From a virus: a DNA stretch of 64,000 nucleotides. The position numbers and the translations under genes are program-made. Below the pieces are notes generated by a model. It ran no database searches. It saw only the letters and a program-made list of their open reading frames with translations, and was not told the origin of the DNA. The stretch covers positions 19,981-83,980 of the IMG/VR virus record IMGVR_UViG_3300009152_000003; one strand, written 5' to 3'. Below, piece after piece: positions 12,630 through 29,703 of the stretch. Positions within the stretch are counted from its first letter, which is position 1, and every line of letters begins with the position of its first letter.

Positions 12630-15600
12630 TCACGAATAGGCGGTGCCAGGCCTGGATCGTTGGGGGCCGTAGACCGCCCAGCTACCGGAGGGGCTGAGCA
12701 GGTCCTGCAGGTAGGCAGCGCGTTCATTTTCGGCGTCCGCCTGTGTCAAGGCGCGGAAATCTCGGCGTGCTTGCAGCTCTCCTTGAGGGGAGATCGACGC
12801 AAGCTTTGCCTTCCGCGGCGAGTAGTTTGGCTGTCTTGGCGCGTTGTACCGGTCGCCTCGCTGCCCCCTCCATTGACCCTCTTCGGGGGCCAGCCATGGA
12901 GCGGGGCTGTTCCCCAGTCCTTGCACTTGTTCGCGCCCGGTGACAAGACCAGGCCTGACGATCTGGGCGACCCTGCGAGCGATCGCCATGTCGTCGATGG
13001 GCGCGCCAGTCGCCTGAGCAAAGGCGCTCTCGGCGACCTGGGCCGCGTGTCCAGGCGATAAGTTTCCAAGGCGCTGGGCCAGCCGTATGAACGGCTCCAG
13101 CGCAGCCTGACGCCCAGTGATCGGACCATCGGCATCGCCGGCGCGCTCTAGCACCCTGTACCCCAGATTGCTCGAGCCTTCGTTGCTGCCAATCTCGACA
13201 AGATCGCTCCACCCGGGCTGGCGCTGCGTCACTCCAAGCTCTTCGAGTAGCGCGTCTTCGTCGAAGTCCTCAGGCCCGGGCGGGTAGAGCTCAGGCCCGA
13301 GCGGGTAGAGCCCCTGATTCCGCTCGGGCAACAGTTTGGCCAGGCTTGGGCTGGCCGCCAGGGCTTTGTCGCCACCACTGGCCGCGAGGATGTCGAGTAG
13401 GGGGGTCCCCGACAGTTCCGACTGAGGGACTGCAGCTGCTTCGGCGAGAACCGCGGCGCGCTGCTGGTCCATCCGGCTGCGGATGTCGCGGGTCCTTGCG
13501 GAGCCCGAGAGACGAGGCTCCGCCTGCCGTGAAGTCCTTGACCAGAGCTCCCTGAGCGTCCGCGGCCCCGTCTGCTCCGGCTTCCTGGGGGCAAGTCGCT
13601 CGAACCCTGACTGAGGGTCGATCCCTCTCAAGACACCCGGTATCGGCTCCTGGACAAAGTGAGCGTTGTTGGCCAGCGTTTGAGTCGCTTGCCGGAGCTG
13701 CTCCAGCTGCGTTTCGCTCTGTCTGCCGGCCGCGCCGCGCGGCACGGCCTGGCCTAGCGCGATCGAGAACGCCCCGGGGTTGACAGGGTCCATGAATCTC
13801 TCGATCCCTGCACCTTGCCCCGCAAACCCTGGCTCGGCACCGGTGTACCTTGCGATTTCATCCAGAAGGCTGATCGTTGTCCAGCCCTCTGGGTTGAGAT
13901 CTTGCCGCTCTGCTATGGCTTTTCTGACTGCTGGCTGATTGGACAGCAGGTCGATGCCTGTGTGGGCCTTGGAGAAGCGACCGCTGTTCCATTCGTCGCT
14001 CCCGACACGGATCATGCGCGAGCTGGGCTCAGGGGTTCCGGTGTTGACGCCACCGGCGGCAACGATGGTTGGCCTCACCAGGTAGCCGGAGTCTCCCCAG
14101 CCCCCCAGGGTGCCGCCTGGGCCGGCTTCGTACTTGGAGAGGAACGGATTATCGGTAGGGGTGATCGAATATCCCCCTTGTCTGGCAGCCTCGAGGACCT
14201 GAGCAGAGACGTAGCGTCCCATCTTTGAGTTGTCACCAGCGACTTGGGCTTGGCTGACTGGATCGACATCGACGTCCCTGGCAAATCCAGTGGCCTGGTT
14301 GAACTCTTTGAGCAGGGCGTCGTAGTTTCTGTTCATGGGATGCCCAATTCTGTAAAGGGGCTCGCCCGATTCGCCCCTTGCCTGGTACAACGGCACCGCT
14401 GTTGTTACCAGAGGCTTGCGCTGGCTGATCGCTTCAGCAACCTCGGGAAGATTGAGCCCAAGGAACATTGGATGATCCGGCCTTTCGGTTACAACAACAC
14501 GGCCAATCCGGGTGCCGCCCTCTGACGCCTTTTGCGGGTCCTCGGGGATGAAGCGCTCAGACGTCAGAACCTCCTCGGGGCGGCTCAAGAGCGGAGTCTT
14601 GTGCCTGTCCAGCAAGAACTGAGTGAACTCGGGCAGCCTGACTTCCTTTTGCCTGTCCCAGGCAGCCGTGCTATCGGGGTCCATGTCCCGAGTCAAGACG
14701 ACCATTGAGGGATCGACCCATGCCCCACCGGGCTGCCACTCGCCCTGCGGCAGCCGGGACGCGCGAGTGGGGTTTTGATTTAGCTCTCGGGACGCAAGGT
14801 TCAGTGCACCGCCGTACTCTCTGTAAAGTCGGCCCCCTTTGGCGTCTTTCCGGCCTACTTGGCCTGCGCCAAGCTCTCCATCTAGGTAGCCATCAGATCG
14901 GGGTCCACGAGGCTCCGGAGGGTTGACTCTCCGCGAGTCGCGCCCTTGACGCTTCCTGTCGATAGCGCGCATGGCACGCCATTGCCTGGACTCTCCGCGA
15001 TCGTATCCACGCAAATCCTCAGGCGTTGCAATATCTTCACCGCCAAAAGAGACAGCCGGATCGCGCATTGGAGCGTACCGGCGCTGCTCCCTTGGCAATC
15101 TGTCAGTAAGGTCGGCTTCCCTTTGACTGTTGTATTTCAGGAGATCAGCATTGGTAACAGCAAGGAAATCGGAACCGTCTGGATTCAACTGAACTAGGAC
15201 CCCTTGCTCGCCTAGTGCGCCCGGTTCTCCCCTCTGGTTTGCGTATTCCCAGACGTCAGACCTGTAACCGGGTTGCGTGAACACCCCAGACCCTTCCCCT
15301 ATCTCGGTGGAGACGGCCGCAGCGGAGGGGTACGCCTTGACTTCGTAGTCGGATCCAGCGGCTGCATCGATGTCAGCACGCGTAACACGCTTCCCTAGCG
15401 GCGTCAGCACTTGCCTGCCCAGGGGGTCCCGCCCGCGGAGGGCAAGAGTTCCGTCCAGAGCGCCCTTGCGGATTGCTTCTGTGATTGATTGGGACTGCGC
15501 TCCGCTTTCCCGACTGAACGCGGCAAATTTGGGCAGTCGAACCACGCGATCTTCGTCGGGCATCGCGGTGTAAACGCTTCCCTGAGGAGCTCCCTCCGTT

Positions 15601-15977
15601 GCCGCCTGGATAGCGCGCGCCGTGTCATCTACTGCCTGGTTTGCGTACGTTGCAGGGTCAAACAACAACCCTTGGCTGGAGTAGCCAGACCGCCGATCGG
15701 CGCGTTCGCTCCGTCCAGGGCCGGGGCTTTTGCTCCAGGTCGCCCACGGGGTTGGTTTTGGTGGTTTGCTTGAGTCGAACTTTGACGGTTGGGGGTCGTA
15801 ATACGCGGGAGCGTGCCTGATCGGTTCAAACAGCGCGCGAGCCGCGTTTTCCTCCCCGAAACCGGGCATCCCGGGCGAGGCGGGGCCCTTGGGCACCGAG
15901 CCAAATGCTTTGCGGGGCTCTCCGATGTCGCGAATCCCACCAATTCGCCGGCCGATGCCCCCATCGCGACCCGCCAT
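12630..15977 (-). CDS. large hypothetical protein, possibly an internal virion protein
   Basis: 1115 aa uninterrupted ORF and first gene of the late block; no motif recognised. Confidence 0.75.
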   Translation of the reverse strand: MAGRDGGIGRRIGGIRDIGEPRKAFGSVPKGPASPGMPGFGEENAARALFEPIRHAPAYYDPQPSKFDSSKPPKPTPWATWSKSPGPGRSERADRRSGYSSQGLLFDPATYANQAVDDTARAIQAATEGAPQGSVYTAMPDEDRVVRLPKFAAFSRESGAQSQSITEAIRKGALDGTLALRGRDPLGRQVLTPLGKRVTRADIDAAAGSDYEVKAYPSAAAVSTEIGEGSGVFTQPGYRSDVWEYANQRGEPGALGEQGVLVQLNPDGSDFLAVTNADLLKYNSQREADLTDRLPREQRRYAPMRDPAVSFGGEDIATPEDLRGYDRGESRQWRAMRAIDRKRQGRDSRRVNPPEPRGPRSDGYLDGELGAGQVGRKDAKGGRLYREYGGALNLASRELNQNPTRASRLPQGEWQPGGAWVDPSMVVLTRDMDPDSTAAWDRQKEVRLPEFTQFLLDRHKTPLLSRPEEVLTSERFIPEDPQKASEGGTRIGRVVVTERPDHPMFLGLNLPEVAEAISQRKPLVTTAVPLYQARGESGEPLYRIGHPMNRNYDALLKEFNQATGFARDVDVDPVSQAQVAGDNSKMGRYVSAQVLEAARQGGYSITPTDNPFLSKYEAGPGGTLGGWGDSGYLVRPTIVAAGGVNTGTPEPSSRMIRVGSDEWNSGRFSKAHTGIDLLSNQPAVRKAIAERQDLNPEGWTTISLLDEIARYTGAEPGFAGQGAGIERFMDPVNPGAFSIALGQAVPRGAAGRQSETQLEQLRQATQTLANNAHFVQEPIPGVLRGIDPQSGFERLAPRKPEQTGPRTLRELWSRTSRQAEPRLSGSARTRDIRSRMDQQRAAVLAEAAAVPQSELSGTPLLDILAASGGDKALAASPSLAKLLPERNQGLYPLGPELYPPGPEDFDEDALLEELGVTQRQPGWSDLVEIGSNEGSSNLGYRVLERAGDADGPITGRQAALEPFIRLAQRLGNLSPGHAAQVAESAFAQATGAPIDDMAIARRVAQIVRPGLVTGREQVQGLGNSPAPWLAPEEGQWRGQRGDRYNAPRQPNYSPRKAKLASISPQGELQARRDFRALTQADAENERAAYLQDLLSPSGSWAVYGPQRSRPGTAYS

Positions 15978-16019
15978 TGCTTGCTTGCCCCACGAATTGC
16001 CGTCAGATCAGTCTATCGG

Positions 16020-16675
16020 TGTTGTTTGCTAGGGCTTGCGGAGCGCTTGAGCGCGTCATTATGCGTTTTCGCACTACGATTCAAGGACCTGAAGCAAAAA
16101 AGGGCTCCTATAGGACCTTCAATTTTTTGTTGCGGCGCGCGACAGACATCAAAACCCACCCCAAGCGAGCAAGATTGCGGGAGGAAAAAAAAAGAGTGCA
16201 GTTGCGGCCAAGATGCTGGGCACGCATGCGTCCATTGCCTATTAATAGCAGGCACCAGCAGCAAGAGCAGGCGCCGTAGCAGCGCGCATGGCGCCTCAGC
16301 AGCAGCACACGCCATCCCCACGCAGCTCGTGCTATCCACACGCCTCGTAGGCGCATGCACGCGCTACTCACGCGCTCGCTTACGCACACCGCAGCGCTGC
16401 AATCGCAGCCTGCGATCTCTCCTGCAGCTGCAACACACGCGTCTGCAACACACGCAGCGCCTGCAGCGCACACGCACACACACTCGCTACACATCACTTC
16501 CTATTCCTTCTACCCTCTTACTCATTCTCTACCTATCTCAACGCCTCAAACCCCCTCCAACGCAGTCACTCTCCACTGCTTCCTTAATAGCTCACCTGCA
16601 CACTCGCTACGCGGGAGCACGCTCGCCACACACACTCCACGCACGCTGCGTAGGGGGCAGTAGTGGCATTGGTGT
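16020..16675. other. low-complexity non-coding tract at the late/early strand switch (candidate genome end or control region)
   Basis: Contains an A9 run, alternating CA/CG runs and a G-free pyrimidine-rich tract at about 16490-16540. The ORFs across it look spurious. Confidence 0.55.
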
Positions 16676-16678
16676 GCT

Positions 16679-16693
16679 CACTCAGCAGTGCAC
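16679..16693 (+). promoter_or_regulatory. conserved 15-mer CACTCAGCAGTGCAC, copy 1
   Basis: Exact copy of a motif present 7 times, all on the + strand and all intergenic. Confidence 0.8.
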
Positions 16694-16770
16694 GTGCCTG
16701 CTGTGCAGCATACACGCTCCAGCAACCACTTGGTTTCGCTTATGCGCAATCAAGGGGGTTCAAATGAGCT

Positions 16771-16785
16771 CACTCAGCAGTGCAC
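16771..16785 (+). promoter_or_regulatory. conserved 15-mer, copy 2
   Basis: Exact match, upstream of the ATG at 16841. Confidence 0.8.
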
Positions 16786-16840
16786 ATGTTTGTTGAGCAG
16801 CTCATGTCCTCTCTTGGCCCAGCGCAAGCCGGCTTCGCTC

Positions 16841-16987
16841 ATGCTCCGCATCATTTCCTTCGCTCAAGACAACCCCAAGACTTACTTGGCCGGATGTCTT
16901 GCATTCGGGACCCTCCTCCGCCTGGCCATGTGCCACGGCAACTTGGATCTCTTCATGGATCCCCTCTATCCGCTCATCCACCGCTAG
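16841..16987 (+). CDS. small hydrophobic early protein
   Basis: 48 aa (MLRIISFAQDNPK...) lying between motif copy 2 and a terminator. Confidence 0.5.
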   Translation: MLRIISFAQDNPKTYLAGCLAFGTLLRLAMCHGNLDLFMDPLYPLIHR

Positions 16988-17007
16988 TGCCACATCTGGC
17001 ACCCCCG
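16985..17007 (+). repeat. 23-bp palindromic repeat TAGTGCCACATCTGGCACCCCCG, copy 1
   Basis: Identical to 18164-18186; core is GTGCCA-CATC-TGGCAC. Confidence 0.8.
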
Positions 17008-17011
17008 TCTC

Positions 17012-17047
17012 GCCCCTGGTCCCGCACACGCGGATCAGGGGCTTTTT
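17012..17047 (+). terminator. intrinsic terminator
   Basis: GCCCCTGGTCC...GGATCAGGGGC hairpin followed by TTTTT. Confidence 0.75.
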
Positions 17048-17056
17048 CAGTGAGCT

Positions 17057-17071
17057 CACTCAGCAGTGCAC
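17057..17071 (+). promoter_or_regulatory. conserved 15-mer, copy 3
   Basis: Exact match, just after a terminator and upstream of the ATG at 17127. Confidence 0.8.
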
Positions 17072-17126
17072 ATGCCTGTTGAGCGGCTCAGGGACCTCTC
17101 GCCCCGGTGAAAGCCGGGTTCCCTCA

Positions 17127-17696
17127 ATGGCTACCACTCAGACCAAGGCCGCTCTCGCCGAAGCCCTCGAGGCTGCCACCAGCCGCATCAGCGAACTGGA
17201 AGCCCTCATCGCTGCCGCCCAGAGCGAGCAGCAACAGCCAACCGCTGCCGCCCATCTGGATCAGGTCCTCTGGATCCAGCGCAAGCCGCTCGCGGAGCGC
17301 ACACCTGACGGCAAAGGCAACATTGGCTACACCCGCAGCGGAATGCTCACTGTGCGCTTCGCCGCGCAATACGCCTCCCTCGACAAACGGACAGGCACCC
17401 GCACCTTCGGCGTCTGGAAGTTCTTCACTTCCTACGGCGAAGTCGCCCAGCAGGTCATCGACCTGATGCGCACTGAAGACCGCCTCGTCCGAGTCCAGGC
17501 CTACGAAGAGCCCTGGTCCAGCGCTCAAGACCCCAACGCTCGCAACAGCGACTGGGTCGTACGAGGCTTCAACCCTATCGGCCGCGGCGCCGGCACTCCC
17601 CCGGAGCTGCCGCCCGTGCCCGCCAAAGCCGCCCCTGCTGCAGCACCCGCTGCCGCAGCGCCTGCCCAGCCCCAGCTGGCACCAGTCGCCTTCTGA
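17127..17696 (+). CDS. early protein with N-terminal coiled coil and possible OB-fold (SSB-like) domain
   Basis: Beta-rich core (GYTRSGMLTVRFAAQY...WKFFTSYGEVA) and a P/A-rich tail; strongly C-ending codons. Confidence 0.6.
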   Translation: MATTQTKAALAEALEAATSRISELEALIAAAQSEQQQPTAAAHLDQVLWIQRKPLAERTPDGKGNIGYTRSGMLTVRFAAQYASLDKRTGTRTFGVWKFFTSYGEVAQQVIDLMRTEDRLVRVQAYEEPWSSAQDPNARNSDWVVRGFNPIGRGAGTPPELPPVPAKAAPAAAPAAAAPAQPQLAPVAF

Positions 17697-17703
17697 GGCA
17701 CAC

Positions 17704-17744
17704 GCCCCCGGCTCCGCCATCTGGCGGGGTTCGGGGGCTTTTTT
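17704..17744 (+). terminator. intrinsic terminator
   Basis: GCCCCCGGCTCCGCCA-TC-TGGCGGGGTTCGGGGGC followed by TTTTTT. Confidence 0.85.
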
Positions 17745-17752
17745 ATTGGCCC

Positions 17753-17767
17753 CACTCAGCAGTGCAC
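17753..17767 (+). promoter_or_regulatory. conserved 15-mer, copy 4
   Basis: Exact match, just after a terminator and upstream of the ATG at 17827. Confidence 0.8.
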
Positions 17768-17826
17768 ATGCCTGTTGAGCGGGCGCCTGTCCTCTCTCAT
17801 CCCGGCGAAAGCCGGGGCGTTTTGTC

Positions 17827-18147
17827 ATGACCGAATCCCGGCTCTATGACCTCTCCCAGCAACTCCGCCTGCTGGCACGCCGTGACTGCCATCTCTCAGC
17901 CCATGGCAGCCTTCTCAACGGCTCCGTCGACCGCAAGGTCGAGGACGCCCGCGAGGAACTCCTCGTTGCCCTGGAACTCATCCAGGACCGCCAAGCTCTA
18001 GACGTCCAGCACCTGGACGCCATCGACTACTGCCAGGCCCTTGCCTGGCGCAACCGCCATCAGATCCAGGCACTCCGCCGCCAGTCGGAGTTCGAGCAAC
18101 GCCTGGAAGCGCAAGCTCCACGGCCACTCCGCCTCGAGGCCGCCTGA
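17827..18147 (+). CDS. hypothetical early protein
   Basis: 106 aa helical ORF following the motif leader. Confidence 0.7.
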   Translation: MTESRLYDLSQQLRLLARRDCHLSAHGSLLNGSVDRKVEDAREELLVALELIQDRQALDVQHLDAIDYCQALAWRNRHQIQALRRQSEFEQRLEAQAPRPLRLEAA

Positions 18148-18163
18148 CCCCCTCATACCGGGG

Positions 18164-18186
18164 TAGTGCCACATCTGGCACCCCCG
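18164..18186 (+). repeat. 23-bp palindromic repeat, copy 2
   Basis: Identical to 16985-17007 and embedded in the longer hairpin ACCGGGG...CCCCGGT. Confidence 0.8.
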
Positions 18187-18267
18187 GTGTGCTTCATTAC
18201 CGACCGCTCTAGCTGACAGTCCCTGCTACCCTCCCGCAATTCGCCCGGGCACTGCCCGGCTTACAAC

Positions 18268-18609
18268 ATGACACCCGCTTCCGCGGGGCGCCTCGCCGGC
18301 ATTGCCTGGCGACACAGCGCCCCTGTCTTCTTCCTTGCCTGGGCTCTCGCCCGGGCACTCTTCGCCCTCTTCCTCCTGACCGGCGACGCCATTTGGCAGC
18401 GCCGTCAGAGCATCTTCCAGGGCATCCTGCACGCCCTGGTACACGCCTACGTGGCCGCTGAGGCCACCTACCACGCAGGCCGCCGCGTCAGGGCCCGCCT
18501 AGGCGCTCATGGCGCCCTCAGCGGTACCTCCGCTGCCCAGGCTCCCCAAGTCCTGCGCCTGGCGCTCCTGCGCTTCCTGGCGCGCCGCTACGGCTGGAGG
18601 CTGGCGTGA
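18268..18609 (+). CDS. hypothetical membrane protein
   Basis: 113 aa, hydrophobic, with a GTGA overlap with the next ORF. Confidence 0.55.
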   Translation: MTPASAGRLAGIAWRHSAPVFFLAWALARALFALFLLTGDAIWQRRQSIFQGILHALVHAYVAAEATYHAGRRVRARLGAHGALSGTSAAQAPQVLRLALLRFLARRYGWRLA

Positions 18610-18800
18610 TCACCATCACCGCCCCCAACGGCCAACTGCTCGCCGACCAGCGCGGGCAGTTCTTTTACTCCCACAAGGGCCAGCTCGTCTCGGTTCCGCC
18701 GACCTCCTGTCGCTGGGACCTGGCCGACATGGCCCGCCTCTGGGGCGACATGTGCGCCGTCACTGGCAACCCATACGTCCTCTCCATCAGCCCTGGCTGA
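18606..18800 (+). CDS. hypothetical protein
   Basis: 64 aa, coupled to the upstream gene. Confidence 0.55.
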   Translation: MITITAPNGQLLADQRGQFFYSHKGQLVSVPPTSCRWDLADMARLWGDMCAVTGNPYVLSISPG

Positions 18801-19302
18801 CACCTTCCCGTTGCCCCGTCTGACGCCTCCTACCCTTGGTGGCGTCATGAGACGGGGACTCGCTCTTGCTTGGCCTGCCCAGGCGAGAGCTTTCATCCTC
18901 CCCACCCCCATGGTCAAAACCTTCTCCATCTTCATTTCCGGCGTCGTTGGCGTCGGCATGATTGCCGGCGCAATCGCCGACTACCGGGCCCTCCGTCTGG
19001 AGGCCCAGGCCGGGATCCCCGTCCCGGAATGCGCCAACATCAGCCTCCTTAGGCCCCCCTGCCGCTGACCTCTCGACCATCCATTGCAGCCGATCGCGGT
19101 CAATCAGCAGGTCGCCCCTGACCCAGCTGATCACGCAGTTCGGTAACACCTGCTCCTCTGGCACCGGCGGCTGCCAGCTGTACCAGCTGTGCTTGCACCG
19201 GCGACACCTTCGCCAGCGAATCCGACCGCCTTCTAGGTCGACCGCTGGACGACTGGTGACGCAACCAGCCAAGCCGTTGCACCGGGAGCACCTCACTGTC
19301 AC
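18787..19302 (-). CDS. NrdR-like zinc-ribbon protein (3' end uncertain)
   Basis: CSRC...VTSRP...RIRWRRCRRCKHSWYSW resembles the NrdR N-terminal Zn ribbon. Confidence 0.55.
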   Translation of the reverse strand: MTVRCSRCNGLAGCVTSRPAVDLEGGRIRWRRCRRCKHSWYSWQPPVPEEQVLPNCVISWVRGDLLIDRDRLQWMVERSAAGGPKEADVGAFRDGDPGLGLQTEGPVVGDCAGNHADANDAGNEDGEGFDHGGGEDESSRLGRPSKSESPSHDATKGRRRQTGQREGVSQG

Positions 19303-19350
19303 GCTGCCTGACTGCCATAGCGGTCAGACAGTTTACCCCCCTCTCGCCTC

Positions 19351-19569
19351 ATGATTCTCGAAATCTTTTGCGGCCACGAGGCCTATGGCCCCGCCATGGG
19401 CAGCGCCAGATACCTCAGGCGCCTTGCCAGGGCCTTCCAGCGCGTTCACCCGCACGCTCGCGTTGTCCTCTCCCCAGAGGACGGCTACAGGCCCGCCCAG
19501 CTGGCCCTCTTGGCCGCCATCGCCGATCAAGGCGAGCGCGACATGCGCGAGCTCATGGAGGCCCCATGA
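19351..19569 (+). CDS. hypothetical protein
   Basis: 72 aa with an ATGA overlap with the next gene. Confidence 0.55.
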   Translation: MILEIFCGHEAYGPAMGSARYLRRLARAFQRVHPHARVVLSPEDGYRPAQLALLAAIADQGERDMRELMEAP

Positions 19570-19898
19570 CCACACAATCACTCTCCCTCCGCCTGGCGGA
19601 CGACCTCGCCGCCAATCCCCTGACCTGGCCGGGGCTCTACCCCCGCTACGGCGTCACCAACGACGGTCAAGCGCTCTGCCCCGACTGCTGCCGGACGGAG
19701 CGCAAGTGGATCGCCACCACCACCGGCTCTGACGGCTGGTGCCTCATCGACGTCTCCGTCGACTGGGGCGATAGCGACATCAGCTGCAGCCATTGCAGCA
19801 AGCCAATCCTCGAGGCCTGCCTTGAGGAACCCCAGGTCGGCACCGACGCGCCCACCGTTGAAGAACGCAACTCCCTCACCCTCGCCTACGCCCAATGA
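19566..19898 (+). CDS. conserved phage hypothetical protein (WPGxYP...LCxxC, CxxC)
   Basis: Motif pattern TWPGLYPRYGVTNDGQALCPDC...CSHC; ATGA overlaps on both sides. Confidence 0.7.
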   Translation: MTTQSLSLRLADDLAANPLTWPGLYPRYGVTNDGQALCPDCCRTERKWIATTTGSDGWCLIDVSVDWGDSDISCSHCSKPILEACLEEPQVGTDAPTVEERNSLTLAYAQ

Positions 19899-20308
19899 AC
19901 CCTGCCATCAAGACCCAATGGGTCGCCGCCCTTCGCTCCGGTGAATACCAGCAAGGCAGAAACTTCCTTCGCACCGACGAGGGCTTCTGCTGCCTAGGGG
20001 TCCTCTGTGACCTGGCCGCCAAGGCCGGCATCGGTGTGTACTGGAGCAAGCCCGCCGCAGCACCCACTCTCGACGGCCGCGTCTACGACGACGTTCAAGC
20101 CTGCTGCGACTCAACTGGAATCCTGCCTGCGGCCGTCATGTGCTGGGCTGATCTCGACACGGACTCTCCCGAGGTAACCGCTGTCAATGGCCTAAACATT
20201 GACGTGACCACCGACGGCGATTCCAACGTAATCCCGCTGGCACGCCTCAACGACACGCATCTGTTTGATTTTTCCATCATCGCTGACCTCATTGAGGCTC
20301 AATTGTGA
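19895..20308 (+). CDS. conserved phage hypothetical protein
   Basis: WVAALRSGEYQQG...FCCLGVLCDL...LND...FSIIADLIE, a pattern common in phage early regions. Confidence 0.75.
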   Translation: MNPAIKTQWVAALRSGEYQQGRNFLRTDEGFCCLGVLCDLAAKAGIGVYWSKPAAAPTLDGRVYDDVQACCDSTGILPAAVMCWADLDTDSPEVTAVNGLNIDVTTDGDSNVIPLARLNDTHLFDFSIIADLIEAQL

Positions 20309-20580
20309 AGCAGATCTCCTACACCGAACTTGCGTCTCACTTCCACCCCGAAGTGCACGACAGCCTCAAGCGCGTCGCCTGCCACCCAGGCGCTACGCAC
20401 CTGGTCTTGTTCCAGAACCAGGCTCTTGATTCATCTGCCCACGGCCTCTGCTCTGCGTTGGCTGTGGGCCCCGGCTGCACCCGCGCCTCCCTCGAGGAGG
20501 CGTATGCCGGCCACCTGAATGACCTGCCGTCCCAGCGGCAATATCCCATCGCCCATTGCGAGCTGCCCCATGCCGCATGA
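20305..20580 (+). CDS. hypothetical protein
   Basis: 91 aa with a GTGA overlap. Confidence 0.6.
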   Translation: MKQISYTELASHFHPEVHDSLKRVACHPGATHLVLFQNQALDSSAHGLCSALAVGPGCTRASLEEAYAGHLNDLPSQRQYPIAHCELPHAA

Positions 20581-20875
20581 CCCCCTCTGGTCCGGCTGGT
20601 TCGATGGCCGCACGGCCATTCGTGACCTGCTGGCTGACTGTATCAAAGACTGCTCGGCTCGCGAAAGCGACGTCAGCGAAGCTGTTGACCACTGGGTCAA
20701 GAAGCTCCAGCTCGAGGCCCCACCCTGGCTGCTGCGCGAGCACCTCCGCGGCACCGGGGGCTACGAGCCCTGGCAGCTCTGCGATCACCAGGCGAACCTG
20801 CGTCGCCTGCTCTTTTCCTGGGCCTGCGACTGCCGCGAGAGCGGTCTCAACCTTCCCATCTATCTCGCTCGATGA
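20570..20875 (+). CDS. conserved phage hypothetical protein
   Basis: LREHLRGTGGY...DHQANLRRLLFSWACD. Confidence 0.65.
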   Translation: MPHDPLWSGWFDGRTAIRDLLADCIKDCSARESDVSEAVDHWVKKLQLEAPPWLLREHLRGTGGYEPWQLCDHQANLRRLLFSWACDCRESGLNLPIYLAR

Positions 20876-21066
20876 CGGCCCGCTCTGCGCCTTTCCTCTG
20901 CACCAGCATCTTCACCTGCGGTGTCTGCCTGGCGGATCTCGTCGACCGCAACACCGCGGACCACTCCTTCTACCCCCAGGCCTGGATCCCTGGGCCCCAC
21001 CCATCCCCTGCGGCGGTTGAGCTCCACGAGCTCCGCCGCTGGCAGACGCTTGCTAGCACACCATGA
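20872..21066 (+). CDS. hypothetical protein
   Basis: 64 aa, ATGA-coupled. Confidence 0.5.
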   Translation: MTARSAPFLCTSIFTCGVCLADLVDRNTADHSFYPQAWIPGPHPSPAAVELHELRRWQTLASTP

Positions 21067-21272
21067 ACTCCCCACTGCCGCGAGAGCGGCCTCAGCCTCT
21101 CACTCTCAAGGTAGAAGCCACCGGCGCCACCGACGACGACTTGCTCATCGCTCTCGACGAAGTCAAGCGCCTCATCTCTGAAGGCTTCAGCTCAGGCTTC
21201 GGCTCCAACGAGAGCGGCTCTTTCAGCTTCGAATACAGCGACACCGCCTGGAGACAAACCAATGAATCTTGA
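21063..21272 (+). CDS. hypothetical protein
   Basis: 69 aa, ALDEVKRLISEGFSSG...GSFSF; coupled. Confidence 0.65.
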   Translation: MNSPLPRERPQPLTLKVEATGATDDDLLIALDEVKRLISEGFSSGFGSNESGSFSFEYSDTAWRQTNES

Positions 21273-21474
21273 CTTCGACGCCGACCTCGGCGCCCCCGGG
21301 GCTCCGGCGTCCCGGCGCTTCGTGTTCATCACTCGAACAATCGGCCCCTCTGGCGGCCACGCCCTTGACGCTATTGCCGACGACGGCACTGCCTGGTACG
21401 CCGTGCTGCAGCGTGGCGCCGGCCTCAGCGTCTCGTCCTGGCAGCCGCACCCGCCTCTGCCGCCGATCAACTGA
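21262..21474 (+). CDS. hypothetical protein
   Basis: 70 aa, LDAIADDGTAW...WQPHPPLP. Confidence 0.6.
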   Translation: MNLDFDADLGAPGAPASRRFVFITRTIGPSGGHALDAIADDGTAWYAVLQRGAGLSVSSWQPHPPLPPIN

Positions 21475-21688
21475 ACACCGGCTCGGCCACGCCTAATGAC
21501 CGGGGGACAGCTTCCTCTTGGATGTCCGCCACCCGGCCAGCGCGGGCGCGCATCAGTTCTCTAACGCGCTCGCCCTCGGCGTTCCAGCCCATCGCAGGCA
21601 GCGCAAGGCCTCTCACTAGGGCCTCTTGCCATAGAGCTGCCTCGATCAACCCAGCCAGATCAATCTGGTCCCCCGCAAACCTCTCCAC
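21467..21688 (-). CDS. late-type hypothetical protein (RFAGDQ motif)
   Basis: GTG start immediately after the stop of 21690..22181. Confidence 0.55.
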   Translation of the reverse strand: MERFAGDQIDLAGLIEAALWQEALVRGLALPAMGWNAEGERVRELMRARAGRVADIQEEAVPRSLGVAEPVFS

Positions 21689-21689
21689 A

Positions 21690-22181
21690 TCAGGCGAGCG
21701 GGCTGTTCTCTGTCCTCTCGCCTGTCGTCGAGCCCTCCTGCAAGAACCCCATCAACTGCAACAACTGCTGGGCGGGCGCTGTCAACAGCGCACCGCCACC
21801 CACGATCGCCGTCGGCAACACGCCGCGACGGACGTAATCGTTCGTTGCGATCCCTTCGTTGATCATCTCCATCGTGCCGCGACCTGTCCAACCACCCTGC
21901 CCGCGACGCATGTCGGGGGCGTACTGGCTGGCAATCCTGGCGCGGCCCTTTTGATTGCCCAGGGCGCTCTCGATCCCCGCAACGGCATCAGCCGCCGGAG
22001 GAGCGAAGCCCCTGGTAATCCGCTCCATGATCTGCGAGCGGTACTTCCCTTCGGTATCGCCCTGGATCATCGCGGTGTTCCGCGCAATCCCAGCAGCCCT
22101 GTCCCCTGCTTGGCGCTTGGCTGCCTCCTCGGCAATCCAGGCGTCAAGCCCAGCAAGCTTGCCCTGAATCTGACCCCACAT
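21690..22181 (-). CDS. late-type hypothetical protein
   Basis: GAGGT SD and a TAGAAT -10 (22204-22209) upstream; C-terminal hydrophobic helix. Confidence 0.65.
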   Translation of the reverse strand: MWGQIQGKLAGLDAWIAEEAAKRQAGDRAAGIARNTAMIQGDTEGKYRSQIMERITRGFAPPAADAVAGIESALGNQKGRARIASQYAPDMRRGQGGWTGRGTMEMINEGIATNDYVRRGVLPTAIVGGGALLTAPAQQLLQLMGFLQEGSTTGERTENSPLA

Positions 22182-22227
22182 GGATAGCACCTCGGATCGT
22201 TCGATTCTAGGTGGATCTTTGTGGGTC

Positions 22228-22242
22228 CACTCAGCAGTGCAC
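22228..22242 (+). promoter_or_regulatory. conserved 15-mer, copy 5
   Basis: Exact match upstream of the ATG at 22285, back-to-back with a minus-strand TAGAAT. Confidence 0.8.
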
Positions 22243-22284
22243 ATGCCTGTTGAGCCCCTTTATCTCTCTGTTTGGAACAAGACC

Positions 22285-22686
22285 ATGCCCATCATCGCTT
22301 TTGGCCCCTTCGAAATCCGCCTCAACTCCGGCACCACCGGCGTCAACTGGACCGACACGGAGCTTGCCTTCGTGACCGGTCGTAACGGCGCCGGCTTCGC
22401 GACACGAGAAACCGCACTTCGCGCCGGCTTCAAGTCCGAGCACCTGCTCGAGCTCGCCGGTGAGGACGACACCAACGACACCAAGGTCGTCAACGGTGCC
22501 ACCTACCACGGCAAGCGCAGCACTGGCTTCGACGGCAAGGACTACGTCCTCTCTGCTGAGCAAATCGCCGCACGCGCCGAGTACCGCAAAGCCATGCGCG
22601 AAAGCCAAAACCAGGCCAAACGCGCCGCCGAGTTCGCCGCAGGCAGCGACCCCTCGATCACCGTCGAGGCCGCACCTGCGGGCTGA
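22285..22686 (+). CDS. hypothetical early protein
   Basis: 133 aa with strong codon bias, flanked by the motif and a terminator. Confidence 0.75.
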   Translation: MPIIAFGPFEIRLNSGTTGVNWTDTELAFVTGRNGAGFATRETALRAGFKSEHLLELAGEDDTNDTKVVNGATYHGKRSTGFDGKDYVLSAEQIAARAEYRKAMRESQNQAKRAAEFAAGSDPSITVEAAPAG

Positions 22687-22710
22687 TCCCTCAGGCCCTG
22701 CCACAATCAC

Positions 22711-22746
22711 AGCCTCGGCGTGCGTCCTGCATGCCGAGGCTTCTTT
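22711..22746 (+). terminator. intrinsic terminator
   Basis: AGCCTCGGC...GCCGAGGCT followed by TCTTT. Confidence 0.7.
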
Positions 22747-22958
22747 GTGACAACAGTGACCGCCATGGCAAGCTATCGCACCAATGCCGTGCTACACGTC
22801 CATCGCCTGCGTGACTGGTCTGCCATCTTGCTTCGTCAAGCAAGGGCCAGTTTCGACGCCGGCGATGGCAGTCAGACGGCCGAGTCCGTCGCTGCCATCC
22901 GCGACCTCCACCGCTCGTTCCAGCAACGAGCCCAGCAAATCGACCAAACCCTTTCCCT

Positions 22959-23654
22959 ATGACCATCGCCCCCTCTAAACCCAAAACCCCTTCCCTCTTC
23001 CAGATCACCCTGGAAAGCCAGGAGATCGACGGCGAGCTTTCGATCGCCCTAGCCAAGGCCAGCTCCGAGGACCCCGAGGAGCAAGCCGAAGCCGAGGCTC
23101 TGATCACCAGCCTGCTCGAGCGGGCCAATGACAGCCAGCGCATGCTGCTTCGCAAGGCCAACGGCATCTGCCAGATCCGCGAGATGCTGCTCGGTAAGGC
23201 CGAGTTCCTCCGCAAGGGCGCAGCCGAGCGCATCGCCAAAGCCGAGGCCGAGGAACGCGCCGCCCAGCGCCTGGAGGACTACCTCCTGCGCTGCCTGCAA
23301 GCCCTCCACCCCGGACAAACGAAGTTCGAACTGCCCGAGTTCACCATTGTTTCGCGTCCAAGCGAAGCCGTCGAAGTCGACACCAGCCTCGACGCTCCAG
23401 ACATGCCCGAAGAGTTCACCCGAGTTGAACTCAAGCTCAAGCTTTCAGGCCACGGCAGCACCAGGGCCTGCGACATCGAGCGCCTACTGCGTGGACACCT
23501 TGAAGACATGCTCGATGGCTGCCCTCCCGGCACCTACGAGCTGGCCGAGCCCAAGGCTGCGCCCGACAAGACGGCCATCAAGGCCGCCATCAAGGAGGGC
23601 GCCACCGTCCCCGGCGCACAACTGGTCAAGCGCCGCTCCTGGTCCATCAAGTGA
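22959..23654 (+). CDS. Siphovirus Gp157-family protein
   Basis: Long coiled coil and C-terminal PDKTAIKAAIKEGATVPGAQLVKRRSWSIK. Confidence 0.85.
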   Translation: MTIAPSKPKTPSLFQITLESQEIDGELSIALAKASSEDPEEQAEAEALITSLLERANDSQRMLLRKANGICQIREMLLGKAEFLRKGAAERIAKAEAEERAAQRLEDYLLRCLQALHPGQTKFELPEFTIVSRPSEAVEVDTSLDAPDMPEEFTRVELKLKLSGHGSTRACDIERLLRGHLEDMLDGCPPGTYELAEPKAAPDKTAIKAAIKEGATVPGAQLVKRRSWSIK

Positions 23655-23976
23655 CCGTCAAGTTCCCAATCAAGTTCCCATCAGGCGTCTGCCAAGCATC
23701 ACCAGGCGCCCAGCAAGTACCCATCAAGTACTTGCTTTCTCGATACCTGCCAAGTATTCGTTTTCCGGGTACTCGCTTCCCCCGGCCCGACTTCCTGCGC
23801 GTGACCACGCCGTCGGGCCGGTTCCTGGTCACACCCAACAGCGGCAGAGCACGGCTGGCCCTCAACCAGCTGTGCGATCCCTCCCTGCCGCGTCTCGGTG
23901 ACGCTCTGCTGCTCTCCCCTGAGCAGGCAGCTGGCGTCACCGCCTACCTCCAGTCCCTCTCCTTCTCTGTAAAGCC

Positions 23977-24606
23977 ATGGCAGTCCATACCATCACCTCG
24001 GCCCCCAGGCCCAGCTTCAGGCACAACGGTTACCACTTTGCCTACTACGACCGCGTTGCCCCCACCGGCAAGCAATGCGTGGTTGCCTTCCCAACCAGTC
24101 TCGCTGACACCATCAAGCCTGGCTTTCAGTTCGACGAAGCCACCAGTGTCCACTGGGACGACGCTCTCAAGGCGTCTGTCCTCCACTTGGACTTCGATGA
24201 GCGCGAAAGCCTGGCTGAGCCTTCGCTCCCTCCTGACCCTGAGTCCGGGTGGGGCGACATTGACTATCCCGCTCCCTCCCCTGCCGAAGTCGAGCTGACT
24301 TCCGGCAACAACCACGCAACACCTGCCGCCAATAGCCAGCCAGCCATGCGCGGCCCGGCTCACCGCAAATCGGAAGCTCAGAAGGCTATCGAGCAGGGGG
24401 CTCAGCTGCCCGCGGCCTACCTCAAGATCAACTTGGAGGTCAGTCGCTCCTTCCTGCTCCAGCTGCGCCTGATTGGCAACGCCGTTGGCGAACACAATCG
24501 CGCAATGATTGCTCAGAAGCTCTGCGCTATTTCGTCCATTCCCTACTACAAACAAATCGGCGTCAACCTCACAGAAGAAGACGTCAACAGCATGACTGCC
24601 CTCTGA
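23977..24606 (+). CDS. hypothetical protein
   Basis: 209 aa with typical early-gene codon usage. Confidence 0.65.
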   Translation: MAVHTITSAPRPSFRHNGYHFAYYDRVAPTGKQCVVAFPTSLADTIKPGFQFDEATSVHWDDALKASVLHLDFDERESLAEPSLPPDPESGWGDIDYPAPSPAEVELTSGNNHATPAANSQPAMRGPAHRKSEAQKAIEQGAQLPAAYLKINLEVSRSFLLQLRLIGNAVGEHNRAMIAQKLCAISSIPYYKQIGVNLTEEDVNSMTAL

Positions 24607-24636
24607 TACCGGCGAATGAGTGCGTTCTTGTGGGTG

Positions 24637-24651
24637 CACTCAGCAGTGCAC
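24637..24651 (+). promoter_or_regulatory. conserved 15-mer, copy 6
   Basis: Exact match, here extended to a perfect GTGCACT-CAGC-AGTGCAC hairpin; upstream of the ATG at 24675. Confidence 0.8.
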
Positions 24652-24674
24652 ATTCCTTGTTCCTTGTTTTCGCT

Positions 24675-25271
24675 ATGGAAGCTCTCCTTGCTCCGCAAGA
24701 CACCGCTCTTGCTCCTCTCCCCTCGTGGGCTGTTCCGGCCACGCCCGAGCGCAACTACACCACCGTCGGCATCTCTGCTGACGGCCTCCTCTACATCTAC
24801 GGCGACAGCGCCTCATCGCCAGGTCCCATCCTGCCCAGCGTGCTTGGCGTCGTCGTCGACATCCAAATCAGCCAACACGGCGGTGCCAGCCGCTACGGAG
24901 TCCGAGACTACCTGGACCTCCACCTGGGCACCGCCATCCCTGGTGAGTTCGTCGTGCTGCGCTTGCCCTGTCAGGCAAAGCCGCACCTCGATACCAGCGA
25001 GCTACAGACCCCGTGGTCCGTACGCTCCCTCGTTGGCGCTCTCCTCCTGCTTGACTTGCAGGAGACAGCGATCAAACTGCAAACCAAGCGCGGGAACACC
25101 ACCACGTTCTTCCGCGTCTTCCCCCACTCCGCCGAGGGGATCGAGCAACCCGAAGTCCGGGCCGAATCCATCGGACCGGCACAGGGCGACCTCGAGATCG
25201 CTGTTAACCGACTGCGCAGCCAGCTCGGTCTCCCTCCTCAATTCACCGAGCCCTTCGTTGATGTCACCTGA
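24675..25271 (+). CDS. hypothetical protein
   Basis: 198 aa beta-rich ORF following motif copy 6. Confidence 0.7.
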   Translation: MEALLAPQDTALAPLPSWAVPATPERNYTTVGISADGLLYIYGDSASSPGPILPSVLGVVVDIQISQHGGASRYGVRDYLDLHLGTAIPGEFVVLRLPCQAKPHLDTSELQTPWSVRSLVGALLLLDLQETAIKLQTKRGNTTTFFRVFPHSAEGIEQPEVRAESIGPAQGDLEIAVNRLRSQLGLPPQFTEPFVDVT

Positions 25272-25785
25272 CCCATCTGTACCGGACCAGATCTCCCAGG
25301 AATCCCTGCAACAGTTCCTGCTCAACGCCTCATCAGCAGGTGCCAGGGATCTGCCAATCGGAACCAAAGTTCCTCGGCTGCCGCTTAGCGACCCTGACTT
25401 TGGGGCCGCCGACTTGGTCGTCGCCTTGGAACAGCTCCTGGCAGCGGCGGGTGGAGCCAACTCGCTTCACCTCATGCACGCCAGCAGCTTCCTGCTGAGC
25501 GTTGTCGTCGCCGCTATGGAGCGACGCCTCGAAGATCCGGAGATTGCCGAAATCGGCGGGCTGGCCGGACTCGTCTTTCTGGCCACAACTCGAACGCTGA
25601 TCAGGGGCATCGTCACCTGCATCGGTCAGATCGATGACTTCATCGGTCCCCTCACCGTTGTCCACGCCGAGAGCATCGGCGGCGGCCCTGGCAGCCGCAA
25701 GGGGCTCGTCAGTGACGGCACCCTTTCCGCCCTGGGTCTCGACATCGAGGACTACGACCGCGAGTTCAAGCGGCGCGTCCCCTGA
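25261..25785 (+). CDS. hypothetical protein
   Basis: 174 aa from the ATG at 25261, overlapping the upstream stop. Confidence 0.6.
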   Translation: MSPDPSVPDQISQESLQQFLLNASSAGARDLPIGTKVPRLPLSDPDFGAADLVVALEQLLAAAGGANSLHLMHASSFLLSVVVAAMERRLEDPEIAEIGGLAGLVFLATTRTLIRGIVTCIGQIDDFIGPLTVVHAESIGGGPGSRKGLVSDGTLSALGLDIEDYDREFKRRVP

Positions 25786-25827
25786 CCTTCCCCACTCGCA
25801 CCTCTCTCTTCATCCCCTTCTCACCCC

Positions 25828-26910
25828 ATGTCAAGCGAGTTCACTTCAGGCGTCTTTGCTTTCGGCACCAAAGCCTGGCACAACGAAGGCGATGTCATCG
25901 AAGGCACCCTGCCGGCTGACGAGATGTTCCGCCGCGCCCAGGCCCTCTTCCCCGTCGAGACGCTCCAGCTCCACGCCGGCGACATTGACAGCCCTGCCCT
26001 GCACGACGCCATCGCCCGCGCTGCCGATCAGTCCTTCAGCTCACCAGAAGAGCGCGGCATCGCCATCCACCAGGCACTTCAGCAGCACCTGGTCTCGCTC
26101 AGGGAAAACCGTGTCGGCATCTGGCGCCCCGACGAACGCAAGATTCTCGGCACCGCCAGCCCTGGCTACCGCGTCATCCCCAACGTCCGACTCCTCGACT
26201 TCGCCCAGGCCATCCGCGAAGAAACCGACATGGACGCCTGCGTCGTCCTGCGCAACGGCGCCAAGGTCGCCTTCACGGCCAAGATTCGGGGCACCGACCA
26301 GCAGGTCGTGCCCGGCGACAAGGTGTACCGCAACATCGTGGGCTACCTCGGTCATGACGGCTCGACCGCGTTTGGCGGCATGTTCTCAGACATCCGCGTT
26401 GTCTGCCGCAACACCCTTGGCTTTGCGATGAGCGATGCCAACCGCCACGGGCGGCAGTTCACTATCCGCCACACCGACAACGACGTCGCCCAGATCGACA
26501 ACGTGCTTCAGAACATCGACATCGCCCGCCAGACCTTCGCTGCCGTCCTTGACGACTACCGCAGCATGCAGGCCACGCCGATGGGCCTCGACCTCTACCG
26601 CCACTGGCTGGAGCAGGTCTACCAAGTCCCCGACGTCAAGCTCGTCGGCGGCGACACTCGCCCGGGCCGCATCGACGACATGCCCCGCAAGTGGGCGCAG
26701 CTTGAGCGTGCCTGGAACTACGGCCTCGGCCGTGACATCCCCGGTGTTTCCGGCACCGTCTACGCCGGCCTCAACGCCGTCACCGAAGTCGAGACTTCGA
26801 TGCTGACTGCCGGTGCCGGCAAGCGCCGCCTGCACTCGACCCTGTTCGGCACCGGTGCTGGCGTCATCCGCCGCGCCAACGAACTGGCGCGTGATCTGGT
26901 GACTGCCTGA
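25828..26910 (+). CDS. DUF932/DUF945-family phage/plasmid protein
   Basis: AWH near the N-terminus, YRVIPN, GHDGS, IRVVCRNTL, IRHT and GTVYAGLNAVTE motifs. Confidence 0.85.
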   Translation: MSSEFTSGVFAFGTKAWHNEGDVIEGTLPADEMFRRAQALFPVETLQLHAGDIDSPALHDAIARAADQSFSSPEERGIAIHQALQQHLVSLRENRVGIWRPDERKILGTASPGYRVIPNVRLLDFAQAIREETDMDACVVLRNGAKVAFTAKIRGTDQQVVPGDKVYRNIVGYLGHDGSTAFGGMFSDIRVVCRNTLGFAMSDANRHGRQFTIRHTDNDVAQIDNVLQNIDIARQTFAAVLDDYRSMQATPMGLDLYRHWLEQVYQVPDVKLVGGDTRPGRIDDMPRKWAQLERAWNYGLGRDIPGVSGTVYAGLNAVTEVETSMLTAGAGKRRLHSTLFGTGAGVIRRANELARDLVTA

Positions 26911-26969
26911 TCGATCTTCCTGCCCCTGCTGTTTGCGGGGGCTTCCTCTCTTTCCTCTCACCTCACTCC

Positions 26970-28316: not shown

Positions 28317-28612
28317 CCGACGGCGCCATGCGACAAGTCGGGACGCCCTGTCCCGACTGCGGCTCGATCGAGCGCGGTGTCATCGAGTCGCGGCCCCGCA
28401 GTGGCGGCTCGATCTACCGCCGCTGCTTTTGCCGCCGGTGCGGTACTCGCTACACCACTCGGGAACAACTGGTCGGCGAGGCAGCCACCAAGACGCCCGA
28501 CGACAGCCGCGCCGAACGGCTCAGACGCGCGGCAATGATCGATCAGATCGATCGCATCGAGCGCAGCCTTGCCGTCCTCAGGAAGAACGTGCCTCCTGTC
28601 AATTTGACCTGA
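28313..28612 (+). CDS. NrdR-like zinc-ribbon protein lacking the ATP-cone
   Basis: CPDCG...VIESRP...IYRRCFCRRCGTRYTTRE followed by a short coiled coil. Confidence 0.75.
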   Translation: MTDGAMRQVGTPCPDCGSIERGVIESRPRSGGSIYRRCFCRRCGTRYTTREQLVGEAATKTPDDSRAERLRRAAMIDQIDRIERSLAVLRKNVPPVNLT

Positions 28613-28624
28613 TCTTTGTAGCCC

Positions 28625-28639
28625 CACTCAGCAGTGCAC
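28625..28639 (+). promoter_or_regulatory. conserved 15-mer, copy 7
   Basis: Exact match heading the 28.7-37 kb gene run. Confidence 0.8.
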
Positions 28640-28697
28640 AGATCTGTGTTGCTGGCTGGGGTTGCTTGTCCTCTTTGTTTCCTAGCTCCCTCCTTCC

Positions 28698-29656: not shown

Positions 29657-29703
29657 ATCCATCGACCACTACCCCGAACCCTGAGTTCGCTGCAGTGAGA
29701 TCA
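29646..29703 (+). repeat. 58-bp direct repeat copy 1 (dead duplicate of the 5' end of 30019..30423)
   Basis: 54/58 identical to 30019-30076; an in-frame TGA replaces GGG. Confidence 0.85.

Follow-up and report, generated by a model that had tools for sequence, protein, structure and literature searches.

Selected hairpins and an invariant 15-mer in the early-gene leaders of a temperate phage whose host is very probably a freshwater picocyanobacterium

The DNA analysed here, called the window throughout, is a 64 kb stretch of a virus genome, bases 19981-83980 of the 83,980-bp IMG/VR record IMGVR_UViG_3300009152_000003, in which 123 bp overlap between the two ends. The phage is temperate, with a genome of 84 kb that carries an integrase. 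Its late, structural block (terminase, portal-like, head and tail proteins, integrase) occupies the minus strand up to 15977, and a long, C-rich early block of mostly unannotated genes follows on the plus strand from about 16.7 kb. The subject of this report is the set of intergenic leaders in the early block that carry a conserved 15-mer, seven copies in all and every one on the plus strand. The 15-mer forms one arm of a stem-loop, hairpin 1, and in three leaders this is followed by a CU-rich tract and a second stem-loop, hairpin 2, placed just before the AUG. We find that both hairpins are selected structures, the second of them tied to the start codon.

The phage has relatives in at least two clades, of which clade II is distant enough that its primase is 47-56% identical and its portal-like protein 67% identical to those of the window. 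None of the deposited phages searched is close in nucleotide sequence, the window primase being distantly like those of cyanophages S-LBS1 and S-2L, and no prophage copy in the reference genomes carries the motif together with its 3' arm. Next to the integrase lies an attP-like 39-nt tRNA 3' half (L074 4800-4838 in genome coordinates, outside the window) with an exact counterpart in the tRNA genes of many Cyanobium, Synechococcus and Vulcanococcus genomes, and on this match the host is very probably a freshwater picocyanobacterium.

Six of the window copies of the 15-mer, ACTCAGCAGTGCACA, are exact (16772, 17058, 17754, 22229, 24638 and 28626), and copy 1, at 16680, differs by one mismatch (ACTCAGCAGTGCACG); shuffled sequences gave no match. 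At copies 1-4 and 7 hairpin 1 spans 13-20 bp with internal loops. Copy 1 (16672-16713) pairs CAGCAG with CTGCTG, has an outer stem of its own and folds at z = -3.6 relative to shuffled downstream sequence. Copy 2 (16764-16805) combines an outer ATGAGCT/AGCTCAT helix with an inner CTCAGCAG/TTGTTGAG helix that includes two G.U pairs and closes on a loop around ACAU. In copy 3 (17051-17090) an internal loop separates the outer UGAGC/GCUCA from the inner CUCAGCAG/CUGUUGAG, and in copy 4 (17748-17787) the outer helix has become GGCCCC/GGG(C)GCC, a compensatory change relative to copies 2 and 3. Copy 5 (22223-22257) has an outer GGG/CCC, and copy 7 (28618-28665) has a rebuilt stem at a mosaic breakpoint between related phages. 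Copy 6 (24634-24651) lacks a downstream arm; there GUGC of the upstream flank plus ACU pairs with AGUGCAC around a CAGC loop. A covariance model of hairpin 1, with which copy 3 scores 69.5 bits, recovers just these seven sites from the window, again all on the plus strand. An earlier note on this DNA, made from its letters, had described the CTGCTG of copy 1 and the different stem of copy 7 correctly; it had also proposed an 8-bp stem between CTCAGCAG and (C/T)TGTTGAG, of which the G.U-tolerant pairing stands and the length does not, given the 13-20 bp found here.

The full two-hairpin layout is confined to copies 2-4, whose common architecture is as the earlier note had it, with all reported elements at the places given there; copies 1, 5, 6 and 7 are without hairpin 2. 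The CCUCUC tracts of the three leaders lie at 16808-16813, 17095-17100 and 17791-17796. Hairpin 2 of copy 2 (16819-16832, CCAGC GCAA GCCGG) ends 8 nt before the ATG at 16841 and contains an A.C mismatch, where its orthologues have a perfect CCGGC/GCCGG stem; that of copy 3 (17103-17118, CCCGGU GAAA GCCGGG) ends 8 nt before the ATG at 17127, and that of copy 4 (17801-17816, CCCGGC GAAA GCCGGG) 10 nt before the ATG at 17827. The hairpin also exists without hairpin 1. The fourth early gene has no 15-mer near it and has CCGGGC ACU GCCCGG (18245-18259, plus strand) 8 nt before its ATG at 18268, and at a gene junction further along the plus strand CCGGC AGCA GCCGG (33905-33918), preceded by CCCUCGCC, stands 8 nt before the ATG at 33927.

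Across related phages, each of which has 5-9 copies on a single strand, sense to the early genes, the 41 distinct sites show how hairpin 1 is built. Positions 2-12 of the motif make up the 5' arm, and its ACA, with 0-1 nt added, forms the loop. The stem runs on through G11-C12 up to this ACA(N) loop, and the 3' arm begins at once or a few bases later and tolerates G.U pairs, a bulged U10 and mismatches. In most sites an outer helix is added in which bases -8 to -1, which come directly after the terminator U-run, pair with the distal 3' flank, and the versions of this helix are unrelated in sequence (UGAGC/GCUCA, GGCCCC/GGGCGCC, GGG/CCC, GAGCC/GGCUC, GCCC/GGGC and GGGGCCCAC/GUGGGCUGCC). Overall the geometry ranges from 7 to 20 bp with bulges and from 3 to 10 nt in the loop, the lower end being represented by several clade II copies with just a 7-8 bp stem and a 3-nt loop.

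Several comparisons indicate that this pairing is selected. With one representative per family, 14 of 21 independent site families fold at z <= -2 relative to shuffled downstream sequence, and swapping upstream flanks between sites raises the mean folding energy (permutation p = 1.5e-4). An alignment of 39 distinct sites fitted to the covariance model has 80.4% of its cells paired, as against at most 48% with slid partners, and contains 20 double-change cells where shuffles give 7.9 +/- 2.5 and 0 of 500 reach 20. Such an alignment leans towards structure since it is fitted to the model, a bias of which the flank-swap test is free. Compensatory changes fall at three of the five outer-helix pairs in this alignment, and the outer helix covaries both between window copies and between phage clades; the inner helix varies solely on its 3' side, between GC and GU. 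RNAalifold recovers only 4 pairs from a plain MAFFT alignment, because the 3' arms there are out of register. Whole leaders with both hairpins are far more stable than their shuffles at copy 3 (z = -3.8) and copy 4 (z = -4.85), with 0 of 200 shuffles as good. Hairpin 1 is thus a selected structure, and the covariation that the earlier note had made its test is present in its outer helix and, on a fixed-column alignment, absent from hairpin 2.

Two other readings of the hairpin 1 region were tried and rejected. An upstream open reading frame (ORF) of the form M-x-x-LSSAH-x-C, starting at -8 to -6 and ending with a TGA in the 3' arm, holds for copies 2-5, but its frame and stop are lost in clade II, and several sites have CTG. 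The likeness of GTTGAGC to the GTTRRRY of integron attC sites we judge a coincidence, the conserved part being far larger and asymmetric.

The case for hairpin 2 rests on position and on rebuilt stems. In the leader of the gene whose protein begins MTE..Y.LSQQLRLLAR, the window and its close relatives have CCCGGC GAAA GCCGGG, clade II has CCCGGUU AGC AACCGGG and a third lineage has GGGCGC UCA GCGCCC, and all three versions follow a CU-rich box and end 8-10 nt before the AUG. More generally the 3' end of hairpin 2 is always 7-10 nt from the AUG, some gene junctions included, and in clade II leaders with 15 nt from motif to AUG it is hairpin 1 itself that stops 7 nt before the start. What recurs is a stable hairpin that stops, at its 3' end, 7-10 nt short of the start codon, and hairpin 2 is under selection as a structure whose place is set by the AUG. 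The GNRA tetraloop emphasised in the earlier note does not hold up as part of this feature, even though the hairpin before the ATG is there in copies 2-4 (with a mismatched stem in copy 2): orthologous loops in the three leaders read GCAA/AATC/AACA, GAAA three times and GAAA/GAAA/AAAA, and paralogues and orthologues add ACT, AGC, TCA, AGCA and TAGCC. At one relative (L071 15900-16600) four tandem small genes each follow CCGGC AGCA GCCGG, a TGA and 5-7 nt before the ATG, and the window has the same layout at 33905-33929, where the clamp overlaps the end of the upstream ORF; this overlap suggests coupling of termination to reinitiation.

The fixed place beside the AUG, the restriction of hairpin 2 to a subset of early genes and its absence from host genes would suit a translational operator, that is, a site at which a phage protein binds to repress or time some early proteins. 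We consider this very improbable: stem and loop differ even between orthologues, leaving little for a sequence-specific protein to hold, and none of the early genes was recognised as encoding an RNA-binding protein. An antitermination signal of the nut or put type, in which the CU box and hairpin 2, with or without hairpin 1, would carry RNA polymerase past the terminator of each small gene, was one of three functions offered in the earlier note. In lambda nut, boxA is followed by boxB, whose conserved GNRA-like pentaloop is read by N protein, and HK022 put consists of two stem-loops that are both required. The present leaders share with these systems a small hairpin in promoter-proximal leader RNA and the presence of terminators downstream; all three genes behind two-hairpin leaders have a hairpin or terminator after them, and a CU box with a GAAA-loop hairpin behind it bears a superficial likeness to boxA plus boxB. 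Yet the loop of hairpin 2 is unconserved, unlike that of boxB, and the hairpin accompanies hairpin 1 at just 3 of 7 window copies, being missing from copies 1, 5, 6 and 7, whereas the two stem-loops of put co-occur. It also occurs at gene junctions and keeps to 7-10 nt from the AUG throughout, neither of which antitermination calls for, and nut has no fixed relation to a start codon. Because hairpin 2 is mostly missing, unconserved in its loop and placed at gene junctions, and because no NusG-like gene was found, put/nut fits poorly and we regard antitermination as quite unlikely. A cmscan of 15900-29000 against Rfam, the check that the earlier note had proposed, returned no family and no match at E <= 1. 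The small early ORFs have no family matches, an N-like peptide not being recognisable by sequence, and a 189-aa early protein considered as a relative of the single-stranded DNA-binding protein SSB found no support.

In picocyanobacteria and their phages most genes are translated without Shine-Dalgarno (SD) pairing, and little is understood of how they select their start sites. The leaders have no SD sequence, as had been reported; what did not survive is the idea that this sets them apart, since an SD-like 4-mer precedes 7 of 49 early genes, in line with a 16% background and with no enrichment. CU-rich tetramers stand upstream of 33% of early starts against 18% in the background. CCUCUC-like tracts and the missing SD are therefore general traits of the early genes of this phage. 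A parallel for hairpin 2 would be T4 genes 25 and 38, whose leader hairpins move a distant ribosome-binding element up to the AUG. There, too, a small hairpin sits between an upstream ribosome-contact tract and the AUG at a fixed short distance, with the difference that the upstream element of T4 is an SD sequence and here would be the CU-rich tract.

The 15-mer itself is conserved beyond what pairing would ask of it. Its core, TCAGCAGTG(C/G)ACA, is unchanged in clade II despite the divergence of the primase, and its 5' arm is under sequence constraint beyond pairing, because it never takes the wobble-tolerated changes that the 3' arm takes freely. Recombination of the cassette may help to hold the 15-mer uniform, by analogy with what has been proposed for the PeSLs of T4-type phages (PMC4122927). 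As a host regulatory word the motif was rejected: in five candidate host genomes the 13-mer core has no exact copy, its one-mismatch matches are at chance level and it is not enriched. An intergenic sequence at 44112-44126, CTCAGCAGTGCCAGT, upstream of a gene at 44179, is similar to the clade II variant TCTCAGCAGTGCCAC and could represent an eighth copy that has degenerated. A further degenerate motif-like sequence, CTCAGCAGCAGCACA, lies near 16296, within about 480 nt of noncoding, CA-/CT-rich, low-complexity DNA (16200-16680) that divides the late from the early block; in the relative L060 a near-exact motif copy, ACTCAGCAGTACACA, opens the equivalent region.

Invariance of one arm and the loop resembles a recognition sequence, and this brings in a reading at the DNA level, in which the 15-mer with a short upstream flank would be a promoter or operator of the phage family, its hairpin either extruded as in phage N4 or a by-product. 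Such a reading would account for the number and placement of the copies (5-9 per genome, sense strand, clustered at the start of the early block directly after terminators) and for the lack of a sigma-70-type promoter nearby. Over the 19.5 kb from 15.5 to 35 kb a single consensus-like sigma-70 site occurs, and it is on the wrong strand; chance alone would give 2.8. No TAnnnT occurs near the motif copies. Some clade II copies have a 7-8 bp stem and a 3-nt loop, which we take to be N4 geometry. Against this stand the wide variation in hairpin geometry, N4 promoters being uniform at 5-7 bp with a 3-nt loop and the present hairpins ranging over 7-20 bp with loops of 3-10 nt, and the bulges and G.T pairs, the latter amounting to A.C mismatches on the template strand. 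The phage is moreover temperate, with an integrase, and the 13-mer core is not enriched in the five host genomes. The search for a dedicated polymerase was equally unrewarding: no PF00940, Sigma70_r2 or NusG domain match was found in the phage, DxDGD motifs occur in short or antisense ORFs only and in no large one, and the lone Sigma70_r4 match is weak (12.5 bits) and falls in an NrdR-like zinc-ribbon ORF. The one large candidate, an Arg/Gly/Pro-rich, low-complexity ORF of 1115 aa that heads the late block on the minus strand (12630-15977), matches nothing in Pfam, PHROG, PDB sequences or the protein Atlas, and as a virion polymerase it was rejected on matching no solved polymerase, those of N4 and T7 included. 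Nor does GTGCAC...TTG pass as a sigma-54 element, on account of both the GG dinucleotide and the spacing. A promoter or operator read as DNA is thus possible, if unlikely.

Two -10-like hexamers were seen on the minus strand, TATGCT at 16707-16712 between copies 1 and 2 and TAGACT at 16010-16015, the latter with the ATG of the 1115-aa ORF 33 nt downstream of it. Both are candidates for promoters directed leftward, and such hexamers occur at chance frequency.

A palindrome bound by a dimeric DNA-binding protein is excluded, because the loops vary from 3 to 10 nt and the registers shift. Selection at the RNA level, as the earlier note had it, is supported by the covarying outer helix, the rebuilt stems of hairpin 2, its variable loops and the fixed spacing to the AUG; the structure under selection is single-stranded, most likely RNA. 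We infer RNA rather than single-stranded DNA as the active form, the fixed AUG distance, the G.U pairs and the occurrence between genes all favouring it. If hairpin 1 does act in RNA, then the transcript must begin at or before -8, inside or upstream of the U tract that immediately adjoins the hairpin, where there is no room for a conventional promoter. Either the sites possess no promoter of their own and the hairpin forms in read-through or processed RNA, or there is a compact promoter that overlaps the 15-mer, in which case the hairpin is complete only in RNA arriving from upstream; both are possible. A lake metatranscriptome holds 62% of the region, and metatranscriptome contigs (run X3; low-depth and fragmentary) include none over 16069-17136 and one across copy 5, so that some molecules span that site, with DNA carry-over possible.

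Intrinsic terminators lie before copy 3 (17013-17047, plus strand; a CCCCUG...CAGGGG stem followed by C and U5 and ending 3 nt short of the outer stem) and before copy 4 (17704-17744, plus strand), and at these two and at most clade II copies the terminator stops 3-4 nt before hairpin 1. A U-rich single-stranded tract at -16 to -9 is conserved even where there is no terminator. This tract and the hairpin together could be an endonuclease site of the RNase III or RNase E kind, at which one long early transcript would be cleaved to yield stable single-gene messages. The T7 early region offers a precedent, with RNase III sites that are conserved hairpins with internal loops between genes, and the T7 phi10 5' stem-loop, in which a conserved promoter-proximal sequence pairs with a variable downstream complement, stabilises its mRNA. 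Both likenesses apply here, the intergenic hairpins with internal loops and the conserved 5' sequence with a variable complement, while no T7-like polymerase was found and some copies are too short for RNase III. The long helices of copies 1-4 and 7, at 13-20 bp with internal loops, match the RNase III feature of about two helical turns with an internal loop; the several clade II copies with 7-8 bp do not. The sites are intergenic and the RNA-library contig spans copy 5, evidence that is also compatible with DNA carry-over. The terminators before many copies, however, fit a restart of transcription better than one long transcript, and known RNases would need no invariant 15-mer. Processing, the second of the functions offered earlier, is compatible with the data, and as the whole explanation we think it rather unlikely.

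The reading that we favour, to which we would give a probability of about 40%, is the third and best-fitting of those functions, a role in translation and message stability linked to the start codon. The hairpins would act in the mRNA, and the window would hold three copies of a portable early-gene expression cassette in the order terminator, 5' hairpin, CU tract and start-proximal clamp. Hairpin 1, which begins right after the U-rich tract that is often the tail of a preceding terminator, would most likely be a stem-loop near the 5' end that protects the downstream message or serves in its processing, and would also mark where phages swap gene modules. The single-stranded CU tract could be a landing pad for ribosomal protein S1 in a host where SD pairing is rare. 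The clamp, 7-10 nt before the AUG, may insulate and position a short unstructured start region or, alternatively, bring the CU tract next to the start codon; in both variants hairpin 2 would set translation initiation on SD-less genes. The stabilising and ribosome-positioning roles are inferred, as is the sign of the effect on translation, be it positive or negative.

Several observations weigh against this picture. About one third of the site families are without a downstream arm, although in two armless families the upstream flank pairs with the motif instead, as GUGC plus ACU with AGUGCAC in one and GUCC plus ACU with AGUGGAC in the other, a two-sided G/C swap. The minus strand folds almost equally well, and the strand cannot be assigned by folding energy (plus better at 23 sites, minus at 18, p = 0.29). 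The whole leader of copy 2 is no more stable than its shuffles (z = -0.44), because of the A.C mismatch in hairpin 2 that its orthologues lack. On a fixed-column alignment the stem of hairpin 2 looks invariant (CCGG/CCGG). If transcripts start inside or after the 15-mer, then hairpin 1 would be left outside its own message. The invariance of the 5' arm exceeds what a hairpin needs and implies a sequence-specific reader that the favoured reading does not name. Finally, some 600 rough ORFs on picocyanobacterial contigs show no hairpin peak 7-10 nt before their starts. Since rough host ORFs lack it at that distance, the start-proximal hairpin is not a general host initiation device and belongs to the phage. 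A sequence-specific reader is central to one further possibility, a previously undescribed expression signal of SD-less genes in picocyanobacterial phages. In it some factor would read the 15-mer, given that no phage polymerase, sigma or NusG is detectable, and the 15-mer would be coupled to a CU tract and to a clamp that stands in for the SD helix in setting the 30S subunit, 8-10 nt before the AUG; we hold this to be unlikely.

That the cassette is portable, whatever its function, is suggested by the comparison of related phages, among which homology begins and ends at the hairpin 1 cassette; mosaic relatives have no more of it in common than the part between the U tract and about +45. In a comparison of 28560-28700 with L072 and L071, one relative shares the hairpin 1 cassette alone, with unrelated genes on both sides, and in another, homology to the copy 7 region sets in precisely with the U tract. 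From a related strain in a DNA run 28674-29708 is missing, the gap opening just past the cassette. The gene after copy 7 has ACG at 28698-28700 where its closest relative (L071/L047) has an ATG start; its frame is open from 28686 and the next canonical start is a TTG at 28791. Loss of the start, use of a non-canonical start or sequence variation could each account for the ACG.

A second invariant element, TAGTGCCACATCTGGCACCCCC, was noticed at 16985-17006 and 18164-18185, after early-gene stops. It is a hairpin, GUGCCA CAUC UGGCAC, followed by a C run, and every relative examined, clade II included, has 1-2 exact copies, one having its 19-nt core three times; the core is also found in tandem in two large contigs of 160 and 275 kb with 65% GC.

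In architecture the closest known elements are the PeSLs of T4-type phages and the SAS/ESAS of Cluster K mycobacteriophages, and the present element is a member of neither. PeSLs are conserved stem-loop cassettes in one orientation before small variable early ORFs, adjacent to terminators, at the borders of exchanged modules and equipped with a sigma-70-type early promoter (PMC2839356, PMC4122927). The present cassette likewise follows terminators, precedes small early ORFs and has homology breakpoints on it, as at copy 7. It differs in that its leaders have no detectable sigma-70 promoter, its conserved sequence is the 5' arm of a covarying hairpin and a second, start-proximal hairpin is present, and it occurs in a temperate phage of a picocyanobacterial host that is not T4-like. 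SAS/ESAS are asymmetric conserved repeats in one orientation before a subset of non-structural genes, with imperfect inverted repeats at about half of the sites that have a variable spacer and a better conserved left arm; their function is still unknown and suspected to be translational (PMC3203893, PMC12699233). The one-orientation repeat and the better conserved left arm recur here, a likeness of architecture only. The 13-bp SAS consensus GGGATAGGAGCCC, 3-8 bp before the start, is absent from the present leaders and there is no sequence similarity; SAS has an SD-like GGAG beside the start codon, in contrast to these SD-less leaders, and here the invariant motif lies inside the left arm of the inverted repeat and not beside it.

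The cassettes mark swap points of early modules, and they extend the idea of a mobile regulatory cassette from T4-like to temperate cyanophages. The invariant 15-mer offers a way into a recognition step of early expression that has yet to be characterised, and if it is read by a factor while the clamp places the 30S subunit, the arrangement would serve as a structural ruler by which the start codon is chosen, and would make a new class of early control element in phages. With a covarying hairpin, a fixed distance to the AUG and a CU tract, all in several versions, the leader set is a compact natural system for the question of how starts are chosen, one that is directly testable with reporters and toeprinting.

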